From Folioceros fuciformis (lineage: Eukaryota): DNA of 64,000 nucleotides. The notes under the pieces are model-generated. The model was not told the DNA's origin. It did no database searches and saw only the letters and a program-made list of their open reading frames with translations. Positions 30,483 to 39,738 of the stretch are shown here, piece by piece; within the stretch, counting starts at the first letter, position 1; each line of letters opens with the position of its first letter. Location of the stretch: contig JBNGIO010006285.1 of the NCBI GenBank assembly GCA_049999805.1, positions 90,008 through 154,007 of the forward strand, given 5' to 3'. A program made the translations under genes and the position numbers.

Positions 30483-31187
30483 AAGACTGTTCTGACAGCA
30501 GGCTGCAGCAAGGTCCGAAACTAGCACTCTGGGATCATTCTGCTATCTGCAGACGAGTCTACGTTTCCCACGCGGTATCAGCCTATTCCTATCCCTCCGA
30601 CCGGTGCTTGATCGTGGAAAATCAAGAGATCCTCACGGTTACAGGTCAGGTCAGTCAGTTCGGGAGGGGGAATGACACGATAAACTTCGTTCCAGGTGCA
30701 CAGTGGACCTGATGGAAAAAGGATTATCTTTAAGTCGTACAATCTATGTAAAAAATTTAGGAGCTCAAGAAACTGTCATCGGAAGGCAGGCTGGACAGTA
30801 AGTGTTCGCGGTCGGCAGAAACCTAAAATGCGAATGCGGGGGCCTGTGAAGGGCTTGGTGCTGGTGTCGTCAGGGTTTAAGGTTTTACGGAGGTTGTGAG
30901 GGCGTGACTGCACCTTCGGACAAGGATCGGCCGCGGCCGGCAGCTCGCCACTTCTGATAAGCGCTCAGGTAGACGACTTGCTTGCCTTCACCTGTCTCCA
31001 GTCTATGCGTGTTGTCTTCTCGTCTTGTCATATCCTGTCCTGTCCCACTTCACACTGGCGGCGGGTGTGCTGTGGGGACCGACGTTGTGTCCTGCAATGC
31101 AATGGAGGCGATCCAGCGGGGGGAATCGGATTGGCTAACGTAGCGCAGTGGGGAGCAGGTGGGAGGAGGTATGCAAGGAGCGTGGAT

Positions 31188-33230
31188 ATGCAGATTGTGA
31201 ACCAGAAGGTGTGGGCCACCAGCATGAACCGCACGCTGCTGAAATTGCCCTCGCTGCGGGTTGCGGAATGGTGCAGGCCGGGCAGCTGGGGCCGCTTGCT
31301 GTCGGAGAATGTGAACACCGCCCCCGGGAGGCCCACTGCGGCGGGGCCAGTGTGGCGGGGCAGAGCCAGAGCATTCTCGGTGACGGCGGCGGCGGGTCCC
31401 GTGGAGGATCTGGCGGACGGGGGTGGGAAGAAGGTGAAGCGGCTGTCGCGTGAGGAGAGGGCAGCGCTGGTGGAGTCGTTCGTGCTCCAGCACCGGGAAG
31501 CACACGGAGGGGAGTTCCCCACCACCTCTCTCGTGGTGAAGGAGGTGGGCGGCGGGCGCCAGATCGTGAAGGATATTTTGGATGCTCTACAGAAGCAGCT
31601 GGTGGGGCACGAGGCCGAGGTGGAGGCGGAGCAGAGCGAGCCCGGGCCTTTGTCGGCTGCTCCTGGCTTGCGGGTGAATGGGGTGAAGGGAGGCAGGGTG
31701 GAGGAAGGAGAGGGTTTAGGAAAGGTGGGCACTGTGAAGGCCGAGGCTTTGGAACAGGAGGAGGCGGAGGATGAGGAGGAACGGTTTGAGGGTTTAGGGT
31801 TGGAGGAGTTGGTGGGCTCGGAGGATGGTGACCATCAGCAGGAGGATGAGGATGAAGGCGAGGCTGAGGACGGGGACGAGGATGAGGAGGAAGCGTCGGA
31901 GGAGAAGGAGCCGGTTTTGCCTGCAGCTGTGAATGGGAGGAAAGTAGAGGGGACGAGGAGAGGGGAGGTTGAGAGTCAAACTTCCTTGAATTGGGAGCGG
32001 TTGCGTGCTATTGGGTCGAATAGGCGGCAGGAGACCCAGGGTGGGGATGTGAAGCCGAGGCAAGCGGCTCCTGTCAAGATGAGCTTTTTTGATGGGGAGT
32101 ACGACGATGATGAGATTGCTGAGGACCCTGTGTCTAGGTCGGCTGTGAAAAGCGTTGGGAATGGTGGCGCGGTTGGGCACAAGGAGAAGATCGCTGAGAA
32201 TGCCAACGGGTTGTTTATTCGGTATCTGCCCCCGTCGGCTTCGGTGCAGGATATTAGGGATGCGTTCGATATGTTCGGGGAGATAACTAGAGTGAATATG
32301 GTGCCTCCCAGGAGACCGGATTCCAAGTTCACGTTTGGGTTCGTGAATTTCAAGACCGAGAGTGCCTTCACTAATGCGTTGCATGCGGAGAATATCTTCA
32401 TCCGTGGGTCGAGGGTGAAGACAGAGCCGCAACAGAAGGACACTCGGTTTTTGAAGCAGGAGGGGTTTGGGGGAAGTGATGAGGCCGGGCTGGATGCAGG
32501 GTTGAGGCAAGAGCGTGCCTCCTCCAGAAGTCTACACGCAGGGCCGCAAAAATGGAGCGTTGGCTTTGCGGTGGCGGTGGAGAACCTGCCGGTGGATGTG
32601 TCGGTGATCCATGTGAGGGAGTCCATGTCTGCGCACGGGGAAATTCTGGACTCGTTTGCGAGGCGTGGTCCGGCTGGAGTAGTGTGCTTCGTGGAGTATA
32701 AGACGGAGGAGGCGAGGGAGAGTGCCCTGGCTTCGAGGTTCATGGAAGTCCCTGGTGGAGGAGAGCCTTGTAGGATTACGAGAGTGGACGACCCCGTGTC
32801 CCCGGTTGTCCGCCTCTCCAATTTCGCTCCTGACACCACCGAGAGCACGTTGTTATCGTACTGTCGGAGGTTCGGGCAGGTGGACAGAGTAGTCTCTAGA
32901 AGGGAAGGCGTTGCGGATGTCTACTTCAACGACGCCGAGCTGAAGCAGATGAACAGGATTTTGAACCATCTCAACAGCGTCACGATGCATCAGAGGAGAT
33001 GGCGAGCTCGTCTTGCTCCCAGATTATCTGCGCTAGGTGCATCAACCATTTTGAAGACGCCCTCGGGGCAGGATTGGGTCAGGACCCAGCAACTGAGAAC
33101 CCTTGCAAATGTTGAAGAGGCGTTGAAGAAGCTAGCAGTCGACGTCGAAGATGCCCGCGACCTGCTGTCTCTGGTGGAGACGCCACCTTCCAGAATCAGA
33201 GACGTCCATTCGAATCTTCTTAGAAACTAA
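31188..33230 (+). CDS. Intronless organelle-targeted protein: At3g52170-like HTH domain, acidic linker, three RRM-like domains
   Basis: KRLSREERAALVESFV..H...HGGEFPTTSLVVKEVGGG, then RNP motifs LFIRYLP/FGFVNF, VAVENLP/CFVEY and VRLSNFA/ADVYF. The ORF is open from 30978, so the ATG choice is tentative. Confidence 0.85.
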   Translation: MQIVNQKVWATSMNRTLLKLPSLRVAEWCRPGSWGRLLSENVNTAPGRPTAAGPVWRGRARAFSVTAAAGPVEDLADGGGKKVKRLSREERAALVESFVLQHREAHGGEFPTTSLVVKEVGGGRQIVKDILDALQKQLVGHEAEVEAEQSEPGPLSAAPGLRVNGVKGGRVEEGEGLGKVGTVKAEALEQEEAEDEEERFEGLGLEELVGSEDGDHQQEDEDEGEAEDGDEDEEEASEEKEPVLPAAVNGRKVEGTRRGEVESQTSLNWERLRAIGSNRRQETQGGDVKPRQAAPVKMSFFDGEYDDDEIAEDPVSRSAVKSVGNGGAVGHKEKIAENANGLFIRYLPPSASVQDIRDAFDMFGEITRVNMVPPRRPDSKFTFGFVNFKTESAFTNALHAENIFIRGSRVKTEPQQKDTRFLKQEGFGGSDEAGLDAGLRQERASSRSLHAGPQKWSVGFAVAVENLPVDVSVIHVRESMSAHGEILDSFARRGPAGVVCFVEYKTEEARESALASRFMEVPGGGEPCRITRVDDPVSPVVRLSNFAPDTTESTLLSYCRRFGQVDRVVSRREGVADVYFNDAELKQMNRILNHLNSVTMHQRRWRARLAPRLSALGASTILKTPSGQDWVRTQQLRTLANVEEALKKLAVDVEDARDLLSLVETPPSRIRDVHSNLLRN

Positions 33231-33473
33231 AGTGGCTAGACAAGTGTCTCTCGTGTCCTCCACCGAGGCCTCCCCTACGTCCTGTCCTAAGGCGGGAACA
33301 TTTTCTTCCTCTCCGGAATGGATATAGCTCGCACATAGATTTTGAGCTTTCCGCGTTGCGCAATTTCTAAGAACGATTTTTCGTTGTTGGCGTCCCGGTC
33401 CCAGCCCTAACCAGGCAGGAAGTATCAGGTGACTGAGATCCTTGTCGCCTGCCGCCGCGAACTGGCTGACCTC

Positions 33474-33680
33474 ATGCCTCGCTTCAGCAATGGTGCAGTG
33501 GCGTCGAGCCTTGTGGTCTTAGCAGGAGTCTTCTTCTCCCTGCCTTTCTTCATCAGAACGTCGCAAAAGGTCCCCGTCATCGACTCCAGCAAGCCATTGT
33601 CTCCCCAGGCGGTTGGGCGAGGTCCGTACATCAACACTGGTTCTCGTGACATCGGCCCTGATCCAGCACACCGGCGCTGA
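33474..33680 (+). CDS. 68-aa conserved plant microprotein with one TM helix, function unknown
   Basis: TM segment followed by PVIDSSKPLSPQAVGRGPYINTGSRDIGPD, a motif I recognise from small uncharacterised green-lineage proteins. Confidence 0.75.
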   Translation: MPRFSNGAVASSLVVLAGVFFSLPFFIRTSQKVPVIDSSKPLSPQAVGRGPYINTGSRDIGPDPAHRR

Positions 33681-33785
33681 AGTGGAGAAGCTTGCGGTCG
33701 GGCCTGCACTGTGATGTTTCATGGTGCTTGAGGGATGCCCGGAGGGACGCAGCCGCTGCAATAGTGAAGGTGAATTCGCGGTAAA

Positions 33786-34361
33786 ATGCTCGGCAAGAGC
33801 AAGGAGGTGAGTGGCAGGTATGGTGGCCCGAACGACCTTACCAGGGTGCTGGCTAAGGGGCTGGATCTTCTCAACAGCAGCTCTCCGGATAGCGACCATG
33901 AATTGCTGGAGCTTGTGAAGAAAGCAAAGCGCGACGGAGAGAAGGAACCGGTCCATCTTTCCAAAAAACTCCGCCCGGGTTTGGATCCGCAAATTTCTGC
34001 TGACCTCTGCTTCCTTTTGCTCCACAGTGAGGGTTATACATACCAACGTGCTCTCTCTTTTTGTGCAGGACGTGCGACGGCAGAGCTCTCGGAAGGGCAA
34101 CAGCTGGGACATCGGTCTTCATCCACTACCGTTCCCGCTGATCATGTATGTTTTGCACTTTCTTCCTTGACCATCTGTTCCGCTGCTGCATTTGCCCTGC
34201 AGCTGACGTGTTGATATCAGGTGGCAAGTGGGGCTGATGCTGGAGCAACCAGTACCTCCTCAGGCAGCATCGGGCATGCTCAGGCGCGTTTGATGAATGT
34301 TATAAGGACTGGGACAGCTCGTGGGCGGGGTGACAAGGCTAAACGTAAGGCCAATCGATAG
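33786..34361 (+). CDS. 136-aa three-exon protein, candidate PHD-less Integrator subunit 12 (INTS12)-like
   Basis: Exons 33786-33978, 34069-34145 and 34221-34361 splice in frame with GT-AG introns. N-terminal LTRVLAKGLDLLNSSSPDSDHELLELV and C-terminal HAQARLMNV plus basic tail resemble the two INTS12 terminal motifs as I recall them. Confidence 0.55.
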
Positions 34362-34962
34362 GGGGTATGAGCTTCTTGTGTGAACGTAGTAGCCCTGTAT
34401 CAATTAATTGTCTTTTGCAAACGCTGGGTTGACACATAGTCAGCAATTTTCGCACACATGGTGTCATAATTCGATCGTTTTTCACTTTCTTTCCTCACTA
34501 ATACAGTTCCAAACATGTTAGTTGTTATCTGGCGATGGCCGGCCAGTGAGTTAAAAATCTAACTGCAACCGTAACAAGAATATTGCGCAACCAGCCTCAA
34601 ACTCATGAAACAACCATTCGCAGTCCATAAGCTGGGTCGTATAGGCAACCTCGACACATACGACACCGAAAAAGGAAGCACAAAAGACGCCACTCTCGCT
34701 GAAGAAACTACAATAACTTTCCTCTATATTGTGTACAAGTGGAGATCATTAGTCACCTCTCAAACTGTGGACATCTTGCTTTAACCAGTAACTTCATGTC
34801 CACCTGCCACATCCGTCACATGCAAGGGGAGCTAAGAACCACAACCATAAACCTGCAACGTCTTGAAAATCTGAAGGGACTCAAAAGTTGAACTTTACTA
34901 CGCAGACGTACATTGCAATCTAGTCACGGAAGCACCCGCCTCATACGTTCACAACTTCACGC

Positions 34963-37900
34963 TCATCTAGTCGGTGGAACAATGCGATAATGAAGGTATA
35001 GATCGTCTGACTTTTTCCATACGTAAGCCCTTACCGTAGCCAAACTCATCTCTGCAGGTAAAACCTGTAAAACAAAAATTCCAAATTAGAACCAGCCAGG
35101 CCCATCACATCTCGAATAAAAAGATACAAAATTGGCAGGAACAAGTCAATCGAGTAGAATGTCAGAACTGTATTTGGAAAAAAAAAAAACGAACCTGATT
35201 GTTGCACAATATTTCAACAACTGGCTTGACTTGTTGTTGCCAGACCCTTGAGCTTAGGCCCGGCCTGAAGGTAGCGTGTCCATTGGCCTGATGTCCTGAC
35301 TGCCCTGAACTGGACGCCCCTTCAGAACCACCATCATCTAGTGGCTTCTCTACTATCAGCTTTTCAAGAACGTAGTTCACAACCTGCAAGAAAAGAATAA
35401 GCATTCACAGTCACATCACTCCCTTGGCGATCCCAGCGGTAGGAAAAGGACATCGACTCACCTTATGTATTCGCAGGATTCGAGGTGCGCTTAGTTTTCC
35501 TTGAGTGTGAATTTGAAGTGAGGTCCCATCATAAGGATGTAAATAAAAGCTACACCTGCGAAAATGCCACTGCCTGCTCAGAGTAGACTTGCCAAAGACA
35601 TGACTGACCATAGAAACCTAGTCCAATGCATCAGAAAGGGCATTTACACTACAAGTAGAAAGATTGGCCCCCCAATATGAATCTCAAACAGACAAAAAGC
35701 ATGTGAAGGCTACAACGAAAATTATTCGAGGAGTCGGTTGATCAATACTTTGCATACTCTCGTTGAGGAAGGCGATTATGCAAAACGCATTCAATGCACC
35801 ACCACGGAAGGTCTTTGTCGTCGTCTGTACCATCCAGCTCCGTTGCTTTCTTCCGCCATAGGCCACCTTGTGAGCCCTCAGTGATGATGGATGGTGCAAG
35901 CGTTGAGGGAAACTCAAAGGCAGGAAGCACATGTGGGTGGTGATTTTCACTGTCCTCGTGTGCATCATCGGCTGCTACTCTGACAGACCCGTTTTCACCG
36001 TGCCTACCCTCTCGGTGTGAACCATCCCCATTAGGCATGTGAGACAAGCTGGATCTAAGTCTTCTAGCCAACCAATGACTCAGAAGGCCCCTGAGGGTTT
36101 CCTGCCCCAGATTCAACTAAGACATGAAACCATCGCAGGTCAGTGAGCAGCTATTTGTGGAAACAGGCTAGACAAAAGCCTGTGGACAAAAGCCATCAAG
36201 TACCTTTAACTCTTCAGAGGCATTCGGTACTTGCAAGTCAACTGCATACATCTCCGCCGAGAAGCAATTTGGAGTGTCAAGGTGAATAGCGATACTACCA
36301 AGTCTCGTATCCATAGTGAACCAGGCTGGGACACTAACCTGTTGAGACAAGCATCAGAGTGTGCCATACTAATCAGGCACATACTGGCAATGCCTACAGT
36401 CCAACAACCTGGATGAATGCTGGAGAATGGAACAACGTACTCACCATCTCAAACATCTCTTTATCCTTTTCATCGAGTGAAATCTAAACATGGGGAAGAG
36501 GCAAAGGTGAGTTACAGACCATGTCCGTACCGGAGATTTCAAATGAGAACACACGAACGCCATTGCAGCAAACACATATCATCTCTTCAGAAGCACCAAA
36601 AATCACTCCTCCAACTCAGCTCACACCAAACACAGTCACCATACCTTGCCATAGTCTGCAATAACTGCCCCACGTGTGATTTCCCATAGCTTCACCACAC
36701 CGGCTGTGTCCTGTGCAAAACGAGGCCGGCAAACCCTATAATTAGAAAGCTCAGACACAACACACCATACCTTACAATCACAGGCATGTATAACTCAAAC
36801 ATGCAACAGAAAGCTGCAACAACCTGAGTTAGAACATGTCGCCTATCATTCAAAATCGCGTGCCGCACAATACCAGCATTCCCGCTTATCACAGTGTGAG
36901 GCTCTGAATACATAGGAGTCTGGACAACCACAACGAAATTAGCCTACTGCCAGCAGATGATATTATGTGCTCAACTGTCACCACTGAAAGACTGTTTTAT
37001 GGGTTACGGTTACACATACAACCCACAATGCCTTAATAGCCCAGGCCACCAGAATCTAGACCTAGCAATGACTTGCCAAAGCGGAAACAACAACTTATAC
37101 TGGTACATACCGGAGCAGAGCCTTCCAAGCAGGCTCTTGCACGGGCGAAGGGAAGTGATCCAGCCACAAAGGAGCTTGCTCTATGAAGTGACTTCACCTG
37201 GCCCTTCTCCTGAGCAGGCCATTTGTGTAAGGATGAGTCTGTTGTGGCAACCCAAAGCCACTCGCCACCTTGTAATGCCAACTTCTGTACAGGATGTTGC
37301 TCCATGAATAAAAGTGTGCTTTCCCGGGACACCAAATCTGTCAGATACACCTGAAGAGATTGCCACAAAATCAGCCATCATTACCTTCTCATCGTTCACA
37401 ATAGTAAAAGAACCGGTTCAGGCTTCCATCAGCATCAGAGAATTGAAGGAGCTACCGAAAGGTCTCGCCCTCCGCTGTAGACATGGCTAAATGACGGTGT
37501 TGCTGCTAGAGTCCAAACCGAGTCTGTATGAACAGCGTATGAATGTATACAGCGCTGCTGCCCCAGATCCCAGAGACTGCAACAGGCAGAAACTTAAAAT
37601 TAGTTGTTAACAATGGTGAAGCCAAATGGAGGGGACTGTCATGGACATTGCACACAAAGCCTTGAGAACTAGATTACCATAGAGTGAAAAAAACACGCAG
37701 GCTTGGGAAATTTGAAATGAAGGCCACAACATCCGTGAGAAAAAGAGCTCACCGAATCATAGAATCCGAGGATCCTGATAAACAGTACCTGTAAATGCAT
37801 CAGCCATGAACGATCATGGGTCGCACTTAACATGGAAAGAAAATTTCAGACCGGCATGTCCACTAATAATCAACACAGGCTGGATATAAAGCAGTGAGCC

Positions 37901-39738
37901 TGGAACATGCCCATCTCAGAAAAGGTTGATGCCCAAAACCGTCAGTACCCCACAATGAAGGCATTATGCATGTAAAACGGTATCCAGTGCTAATTAAGAC
38001 CACAAAACGTCCACGCTTCGGTTAATAGGAAAAATTGACCAACCATCCTGTAAAAGGCACCTGTAGATGCCCTTCCCAGAGAGGGAACAACAAATGCCAA
38101 CTTACAACGAATGCCAGACGTGATCAGCAGTACTGGCCTAGCACAGCTGTATAAACACTACGAAAGAGCACGCTTTCAGCCTCTGCCCACACAGTGAAAG
38201 AGAAGCAACATTGGGACTAGAGCCTCATGACTGCACAAAGCCATCACCAGAAACAAATTTGGGTTGTCGCACTGACGAGGGACTCATATATGACAGGGTA
38301 TGGACACACAATCAAACCTATACCTTTCTGAAGAGTCCAGAAGTAGTGCTCGAACATTATCTGTATGCCCTTTCAACTTCATTTGCTTGGCTCCTGTTCT
38401 AGGATCCCAAACTCGAATTGCCTGATCGGACAAGGAAGGACTACGTCAGTATGGTTCCCCGAGTGGAGGGGAATGGTGGGAAAAGAAGCACAAAATATTG
38501 CAAGCAAACCAAGCTACCTTTTCAGTGCCTCCAGACACTAGAACAGTGCCAGATTCATTAATGGCGAGAGAATAGACGGACTCCTTGTGACCCTTGGCTG
38601 GTAGCGGAATGTAGCCAGACGAAGGGTTGGCAAGGGGAGGAGCAGCGTTGTTACTGCTGAAATTCGAGCGGTCTAGGCCAGGTCCACCGGAGGTAGGAAC
38701 TGGAGCAGGACCAGTACTTGAAGGATGGGCTCTATCGAATACAGCCTCTTCTGCACCTCCACTGCCTGCCCTTGCAACAGGTTTCATGGCGGCCTCGAGG
38801 TCCCATAGAAACACTTCACGTCCCAAACCGCCGGATGCAACGACATTTGTCTGGCCCAACACAGGGAGCGTGTCGTGGTCAGCACTAGAATACTGCATGC
38901 CCTGCATGCCTTGAGACCTACCCCACGTGACTAGCGCCACACGAAAGTTGCAAAATTCACGAGTGCCTGGTAGCAGCCCGCAGCTGTAGGCACGTATTAC
39001 TCACATGCCTTGCGGCAGCCAAAGAAGTGACATAGTCGGTGTGCTGCCTGAAAGTCCTGGTGCATTCACCATAAGACGAGGCCCGCCAGGTCTGCCAAAG
39101 CCATCATGCAGCACAAGGTCATCCCTTTTTTCCTTCCCCTAACCCAACTCACTCGAAACGAGGTAAGCTGAAACAAGGTCCGTACCTTGATAGTGGTATC
39201 CGACGAGCACGAAACGAGTGTATCGTCCCCAGTCAGCACCACATCATTCACCTGAGGCGAGCCGAGTCAAGGCGAGCCGAGCAAACAGCGTGCAAAAAGA
39301 GAAAAAAAATTACAGCTGAAAAGCAGCCCGAGGACGCGGGATCCGCATGCATACCCAGTCGACATGCGACTCGAAAGTGGCCCGGCATACGGCAACTTCA
39401 TCCCCCAGTTCCCATCTCCGGATGGTGCCATCCCGGCTGCCAGAAAAGAGGTCACCGTCTCGGCCGTCGCGCGCATACGGGTTGGTGGTGATCAGTGTGT
39501 TGATCCCGGAGCAGTGCTGCACAAGGCATGAGAGGGGGCACAAAAGGGGCGCACATGGCAGGGACATAGGGATGTCCGTGAGACGCGAATTGGCAGGCAT
39601 GACGGAAAATTCAGCGGGCTCCGGAATCGTATGCAGCACCTTGGAGTCGTTAGAGTCGCGCAGCACGTATGTGAGGCGGCGTTCCTTGCGAGGGCGGGCG
39701 GCATTGGCGGCATTTCCTGTGCTGCCCACGCGATGCAT
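34963..39738 (-). CDS. WDR48: WD40 + DUF3337 protein, WDR48/UAF1 orthologue (plant LRS1)
   Basis: MHRVGSTGN...[91 protein letters not shown]. Confidence 0.95.

Follow-up and report, generated by a model that had tools for sequence, protein, structure and literature searches.

Animal INTS12 (PHF22) is, according to the accessible part of a recent preprint, largely disordered except for a small N-terminal region and a PHD finger (Blears et al., 2026 preprint). The same part describes that deletion of the N-terminal 50 residues of INTS12 abolishes its association with Integrator, and that the PHD finger, which is not needed for this association, instead contacts NELF-A through the C-terminal domain of the latter (Blears et al., 2026 preprint). 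Further, the available sections of the source state that the flexible N-terminus of INTS1 is bound by INTS12, which the cryo-EM structures do not resolve (Fianu et al., 2024; PMC9006982). In plants, the DSP1-DSP4/CPSF73-I complex of Arabidopsis, which processes the 3' ends of snRNA, is the only Integrator-like machinery that we found described (Liu et al., 2016, PMC5079582, available text). Its members are homologues of INT7, INT3, INT4 and INT9 together with CPSF73-I, and INT11 and the scaffold INT1 are stated to be missing in the plants surveyed (Liu et al., 2016, PMC5079582, same text). The available text describes no INT1-like or INT12-like member of this complex (Liu et al., 2016, PMC5079582), in agreement with the preliminary description of the locus reported here, which had noted that the DSP1 complex is not described as having INTS12. 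The accessible part of a 2023 review in The Plant Cell again pictured the plant Integrator as a "smaller version". Among the literature on INTS12, Integrator and plants, judged by titles and the starts of abstracts, we found no paper on a plant INTS12; likewise, nothing was found on the Integrator complex in Marchantia or on the distribution of Integrator subunits in bryophytes.

We analyzed a stretch of 64,000 nucleotides from Folioceros fuciformis (the window), which has a G+C content of approximately 49.5% and contains four runs of N, none of them close to the gene described below. The preliminary description had proposed that a small gene in this window encodes, in three exons, a protein of 136 amino acids resembling a minimal INTS12. 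When the gene was modeled again, the same coordinates, reading frames and GT..AG introns were recovered, and the N-terminal and C-terminal strings that had been quoted were located in the listed reading frames. The parts of the gene are as follows.

33786..33978, plus strand: exon 1, 193 nt, starting with the ATG at 33786 and ending in phase 1; it encodes residues 1-64 and the first base of the Gly65 codon, including the conserved block predicted to form an N-terminal helix-loop-helix.
33979..34068, plus strand: intron 1, 90 nt, GT..AG, phase 1; skipped in the X1 and X2 contigs.
34069..34145, plus strand: exon 2, 77 nt, coding for the conserved block GR.TAELSEGQQLGHR...PADH in the center of the protein.
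34146..34220, plus strand: intron 2, 75 nt, GT..AG, phase 0; the X1 contig joins 34145 to 34221.
34221..34361, plus strand: coding part of exon 3, 141 nt including the TAG stop, which ends at 34361; it encodes, in this order, a linker rich in Ser, Gly, Ala and Thr, the conserved helix GHAQARLMNVIR and the basic tail GRGDKAKRKANR.

The joined exons comprise 411 nt and encode 136 amino acids. Both introns are of the GT..AG type, with the donor contexts CCGG/gtttgg and ATCAT/gtatgt and the acceptor contexts ttgtgcag/G and gatatcag/G. The basic tail GRGDKAKRKANR of exon 3 resembles a nuclear localisation signal.

We compared the window with contigs from two public runs (X1 and X2), which we presumed, as a guess, to derive from RNA. 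A contig of 5172 nt from X1 matched the window nearly letter for letter, and five of the six X1 records were at least 99% alike. This contig skips 33978-34068 (joining 33977/8 to 34068/9) and 34146-34220; the skipped segments have GT..AG ends and correspond to the predicted introns. In X2, which differs in approximately 9% of letters and, as judged from this divergence, is a related but diverged species, intron 1 was skipped at the identical place, again with GT..AG ends. Between 34126 and 34216, the X2 contig carries 14 other letters, so that intron 2 is absent there as well. Thus, both exon joints are present in the spliced X1 contig and the first joint in that of X2. Because these contigs lack GT..AG introns, they represent spliced RNA and support the gene model in two species. 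The three-exon gene is genuine and expressed.

The genes and reading frames on either side of the small gene are as follows.

30816-33230, plus strand: upstream gene with three RRM_1 stretches (E 3.7e-21) and an acidic linker; its stop codon is at 33230.
33474-33680, plus strand: upstream ORF of 69 codons with an ATG, starting M-P-R-F-S-N-G... and containing a hydrophobic stretch of about 20 residues.
34801-37790 and 38446-39000, minus strand: convergent multi-exon gene with many CT..AC joints (GT..AG on the minus strand) in X1 and X2, followed further on by a WD40-repeat ORF.

The RRM gene has one intron (30966-31155), which was confirmed by the X1 and X2 contigs. In both species, one gapless contig spans the RRM gene and the small gene, which may overlap or be co-transcribed. 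A distance of 105 nt separates the end of the 69-codon ORF from the ATG of the small gene, and this ORF is part of the same X1 and X2 contigs. The 3' ends of the convergent gene and the small gene meet, and the X1 contig fuses both.

In X2, the segment 33239-33434 is replaced by 209 other letters, and the sequences become alignable again from 33434, just before the 69-codon ORF, which hints that the region of this ORF is constrained. This ORF may either be an upstream ORF that is conserved or belong, as the first cistron, to a transcript with two ORFs. It had no match in Pfam or PDB and no counterpart in the moss-like loci described below.

The arrangement of these reading frames bears on whether the small ORF is translated independently. 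It might be a 3'-UTR or downstream ORF of the RRM transcript, or its translation might be blocked by the upstream ORF of 69 amino acids, so that no protein would be made. The gapless contigs that hold the RRM gene and the small ORF in X1 and X2, and the 69-codon ORF (33474-33680) 105 nt ahead of the ATG, are what such an arrangement would produce. However, the X1 contig runs unbroken from the RRM gene (31156-33977) through the small gene and on into the convergent minus-strand gene, whose CT..AC joints begin at 34801; continuity of this contig is therefore uninformative on transcript boundaries and does not prove a single transcript. Further, conservation of the protein sequence and of the intron phases extends over bryophytes and a lycophyte, which requires translation, and the moss-like loci have neither the RRM neighbor nor the upstream ORF. 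We therefore regard an untranslated ORF as extremely improbable.

To describe the relatives of the small protein, we searched databases of proteins with its exon 1 peptide (64 residues). A phmmer search against 1.84 billion representatives detected 13 proteins at E<=0.001, five of them at E<=1e-10, and all were 60-152 amino acids long. The full-length relatives among them (140-151 amino acids) kept both the N-terminal and the C-terminal motif. When a profile of five relatives was used, 22 proteins were detected at E<=0.01 among 7133 candidates, and none of these 22 carried a precomputed Pfam domain. The named relatives belong to liverworts and mosses (Marchantia paleacea, Riccia fluitans, Riccia sorocarpa, Calypogeia fissa, Physcomitrium patens, Ceratodon purpureus and Sphagnum) and to one lycophyte, the clubmoss Diphasiastrum complanatum. 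Every named member is labelled hypothetical or uncharacterised; one further member came from a EukProt transcriptome, and the family also takes in several unnamed transcriptome or assembly records. Examples are Mapa_015746 of M. paleacea, R1sor_009340 of R. sorocarpa, KC19_2G080700 of C. purpureus, a protein of P. patens, and O6H91_09G052700 of D. complanatum.

The window protein aligned end to end with all 15 full-length members, at 42.9-60.3% identity. These alignments, together with the retention of the terminal motifs, are well beyond chance. The preliminary description had looked to homologues that retain both motifs, and conserved relatives do keep them, in the same order. The protein contains no Cys and is basic (pI 10.18). 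The peptides of exons 1 and 3 had no Pfam match at E<=10, and four of five full-length relatives had none at E<=1; the fifth had only a sub-threshold match to DUF816 (E 0.1). We found no relatives outside streptophytes and none in seed plants, in searches that were word-indexed or run at stringent E-values. For this reason, the absence from seed plants is provisional and the range may be wider. The protein is thus a member of an unnamed, uncharacterised family with a range provisionally limited to non-seed streptophytes.

Alignment of the family revealed 13 invariant and 17 nearly invariant columns, which cluster in three blocks, one per exon. The consensus of block 1 in the family is D..R.FN[KR]ALELL.S..P[DE]S[DE].ELLELVKKAKR[DE].[ED]KEP, and the pattern of the exon 1 block that includes the window protein is D..R.[FL]..[AG]L[ED]LL.S..P[DE]S[DE].ELLELVKKAKR[DE]. 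Block 2 has the consensus GR..E..[DE].QALGHR ... DH, and block 3 has the consensus [HQ]AQ.RL..V.R.G.GRGR.[ED]K.KRK..R, in which Q, K, R, K and R are invariant and R, G, G and K are nearly invariant. The window protein retains all three blocks in these alignments. The middle of the protein had been described as a low-complexity segment of Ser, Ala and Gly; this holds in part, but exon 2 contains the conserved block GR..E..[DE].Q.LGHR ... DH.

The window copy differs from the family in nothing essential. It shares the same three blocks and, with the loci that could be modeled, three exons with a middle exon of 77 nt. The linker in exon 3 is slightly shorter, and in the first helix the window protein has L-A-K-G-L-D where most members have F-N-[KR]-A-L-E. 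Its length falls into the common class of 136-157 amino acids, whereas the models of R. fluitans (211 amino acids) and EukProt (178 amino acids) are longer. We tried exon models at eight moss-like loci from metagenomes. In three of these (L003-L005), the best homology-guided model gave exon lengths of 199, 77 and 165 nt, compared with 193, 77 and 141 nt in the window, and the intron phases were identical. Under the constraints set, no intact three-exon model was obtained for the other five of the eight; these are the loci of a divergent paralogue group (L006-L008, L011 and L012), to which the protein P0035 is related. Neither the RRM gene nor the downstream gene adjoins the family gene in 13 moss-like loci. 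With sequence, exon length and phase so deeply conserved, the idea of a chance ORF is untenable.

The firm result is thus a deeply conserved, uncharacterised family of bryophytes and a lycophyte, defined through its three motifs and its constant arrangement of exons. This definition is useful for annotation, and the gene is a tractable target for knockout in Marchantia or Physcomitrium.

The structure was predicted with AlphaFold2 for the closest full-length relative (P0002) rather than for the window protein itself, using an alignment of 15 sequences. The model contains an N-terminal helix-loop-helix with helices at residues 10-29 and 36-52, in which pLDDT is 84-91 over residues 21-50. The middle is disordered, with pLDDT under 50, and a C-terminal helix at residues 111-125 has a moderate pLDDT of 62-66. 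Overall, the mean pLDDT was 60.6 and the pTM 0.30. Prediction of a homodimer of the N-terminal 60 residues gave a score of 0.02 and a mark of 0.32, which speaks neither for nor against binding. When the P0002 model was compared with PDB using Foldseek, all 38 matches at E<=10 were generic helical hairpins and none reached E<=0.001, and the fold therefore offers no functional handle for the reading that follows.

We propose, with a probability of roughly 0.6, that this basic, Cys-free and largely disordered protein of 136 amino acids is a small nuclear-type adaptor. In such a protein, the N-terminal helix-loop-helix (approximately residues 10-52) would be a docking module for a larger partner, and a further short conserved motif (QALGHR...DH) would lie in the flexible middle. 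The amphipathic helix at the C-terminus and the GRGR/KxKRK tail might serve nuclear import, contact with nucleic acid or a partner, or both. We infer the nuclear location, the docking role and the identity of the partner; the nuclear part is suggested by the basic KRK tail and the overall composition. The adaptor reading leaves one coincidence unexplained, namely that the order and the ends of the two terminal motifs are INTS12-like.

The preliminary description had drawn from this coincidence that the gene encodes a minimal INTS12. In a more specific form, the protein would be an INTS12 orthologue that lost, or never had, the PHD finger and that occupies a peripheral position in a fuller, Integrator-like complex of non-seed plants; we consider this doubtful, as we do a true INTS12 relationship of the family in general. 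It is equally doubtful that the N-terminal hairpin docks, as this reading has it, on the N-terminal region of an INTS1-like scaffold protein of plants. The resemblance is a lead rather than a sign of membership, and the results described below neither confirmed nor excluded the identity.

Several features are shared with INTS12. The two terminal motifs stand in the position and order that the preliminary description gave for the human protein, and in both proteins the linker is rich in Ser and the C-terminus is basic. The P0002 model predicts disorder after a small ordered element at the N-terminus, as in animal INTS12/PHF22, in which an ordered element of about 50 residues precedes long disorder according to the accessible part of the preprint (Blears et al., 2026 preprint); this is compatible with INTS12 but generic, and not diagnostic. 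The contact that INTS12 makes with the flexible N-terminal part of INTS1 (Fianu et al., 2024, available sections) also counts in favor of this reading.

The claim that the protein is PHD-less held: without any Cys it cannot form a C4HC3 PHD finger, and it has no Pfam match. The window protein is less than one third the size of INTS12. Its lack of a PHD finger and of Cys sets it apart from INTS12. Plants are not known to have NELF. A PHD-less INTS12 would suit an organism without NELF, so that loss of the finger would be sensible in plants. The conserved central QALGHR..DH block is a feature of the plant family.

No sequence or profile link with INTS12 was detected in the searches that we ran, and none of the sequence, profile or atlas searches returned INTS12. 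The 13 phmmer matches of exon 1 among 1.84 billion representatives were without exception small proteins of plant type and included neither INTS12 nor any PHD-bearing or long protein. Longer relatives were sought with a single sequence, which yielded none among 81 candidates, and with an N-terminal profile built from 17 sequences, which retained 24 of 7999 candidates at E<=10; these were 136-211 amino acids long, and none was named INTS12 or had a Pfam domain. These negatives are weak because E-values were scaled to billions of sequences and a motif of about 30 residues is too short; searches of large databases need approximately 30 bits or more and are blind to such a motif. In the protein atlas, P0002 had no usable match, and P0007 matched only FAR1/SWIM clusters at 0.85, which is the chance level. 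Searches of PDB with exon 1 and with a five-sequence family profile did not return INTS12 either, which is no test of this relationship because INTS12 is unresolved in Integrator structures.

Designed TIM barrels were among the top matches in PDB, together with COQ7 (E 1.6) and a cytochrome c (E 4.5). De novo designed TIM barrels matched exon 1 at E 1.6e-5 to 1.5e-3, with 16 identities over 49 positions in one stretch. Thus, a segment of this type matches unrelated helix-loop-helix proteins. Designed barrels cannot be homologues, yet their resemblance to the N-terminus is as good as that of the human motif given in the preliminary description, and this calls for caution. When that human motif was compared by eye with the window protein, about 10 of 27 positions agreed after sliding it by one place, whereas most of the invariant N-terminal columns of the plant family had no counterpart in it.

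The distribution of the family can be read in two directions. A family limited to non-seed plants, taken together with the statement in the available text that INT1 is missing in plants (Liu et al., 2016), would allow the joint loss of INTS1 and INTS12 in seed plants. We consider it unlikely that non-seed land plants keep a minimal PHD-less INTS12, consisting of an INTS1-docking microdomain and a disordered tail, within an INTS1-containing Integrator and that both subunits were lost together in seed plants. The same statement counts against an INTS12, since the proposed partner INT1 is itself reported missing in plants, although the available text does not specifically address bryophytes (Liu et al., 2016). 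Further, the relatives found so far are confined to streptophytes. If the protein were INTS12, the DSP complex would be its natural host; this complex is described in Arabidopsis (Liu et al., 2016, available text), whereas the small-protein family was found, provisionally, in no seed plant.

Were the INTS12 reading true, the plant Integrator would comprise more than the five members of the Arabidopsis DSP complex, and the family would amount to a natural experiment in which the docking of INTS12 on INTS1 is separated from its PHD/NELF function. In its minimal form, this reading would imply a more complete, INTS1-containing Integrator in early-diverging land plants.

The same distribution could reflect a trait kept by non-seed plants that is unrelated to transcription, and the protein would then be a basic nuclear protein of, for example, motile-sperm chromatin or the basal apparatus. 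Presence in bryophytes and a lycophyte and in no seed plant is the pattern of many genes of flagellate sperm, and the protein is basic, with the pI given above. However, nothing ties the family to sperm, its conserved helical hairpin is unlike simple protamine-like proteins, and the gene was found in assembled contigs of two unrelated runs. Since the absence from seed plants may also be a detection limit, we consider a role in sperm highly improbable and prefer to regard the protein as a small nuclear-type adaptor.

Public models of the family deserve separate mention. In many of the models P0001, P0003, P0005, P0006, P0009-P0011, P0013 and P0025-P0034, homology is lost right after exon 1 and unrelated residues follow. 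At least ten database models run on into intron 1. The loss of homology at this position has the signature of read-through into intron 1. Automatic annotation thus frequently truncates the protein, and mis-annotation of the family is systematic.

Intronless copies of the family gene were present in two moss-like metagenome contigs (L010, 3592-4029; L013, 1473-1911). The window protein aligned with the L010 copy in one piece at 40% identity, but the frame is broken after approximately 81-90 codons. The copies look like processed pseudogenes or retrocopies.
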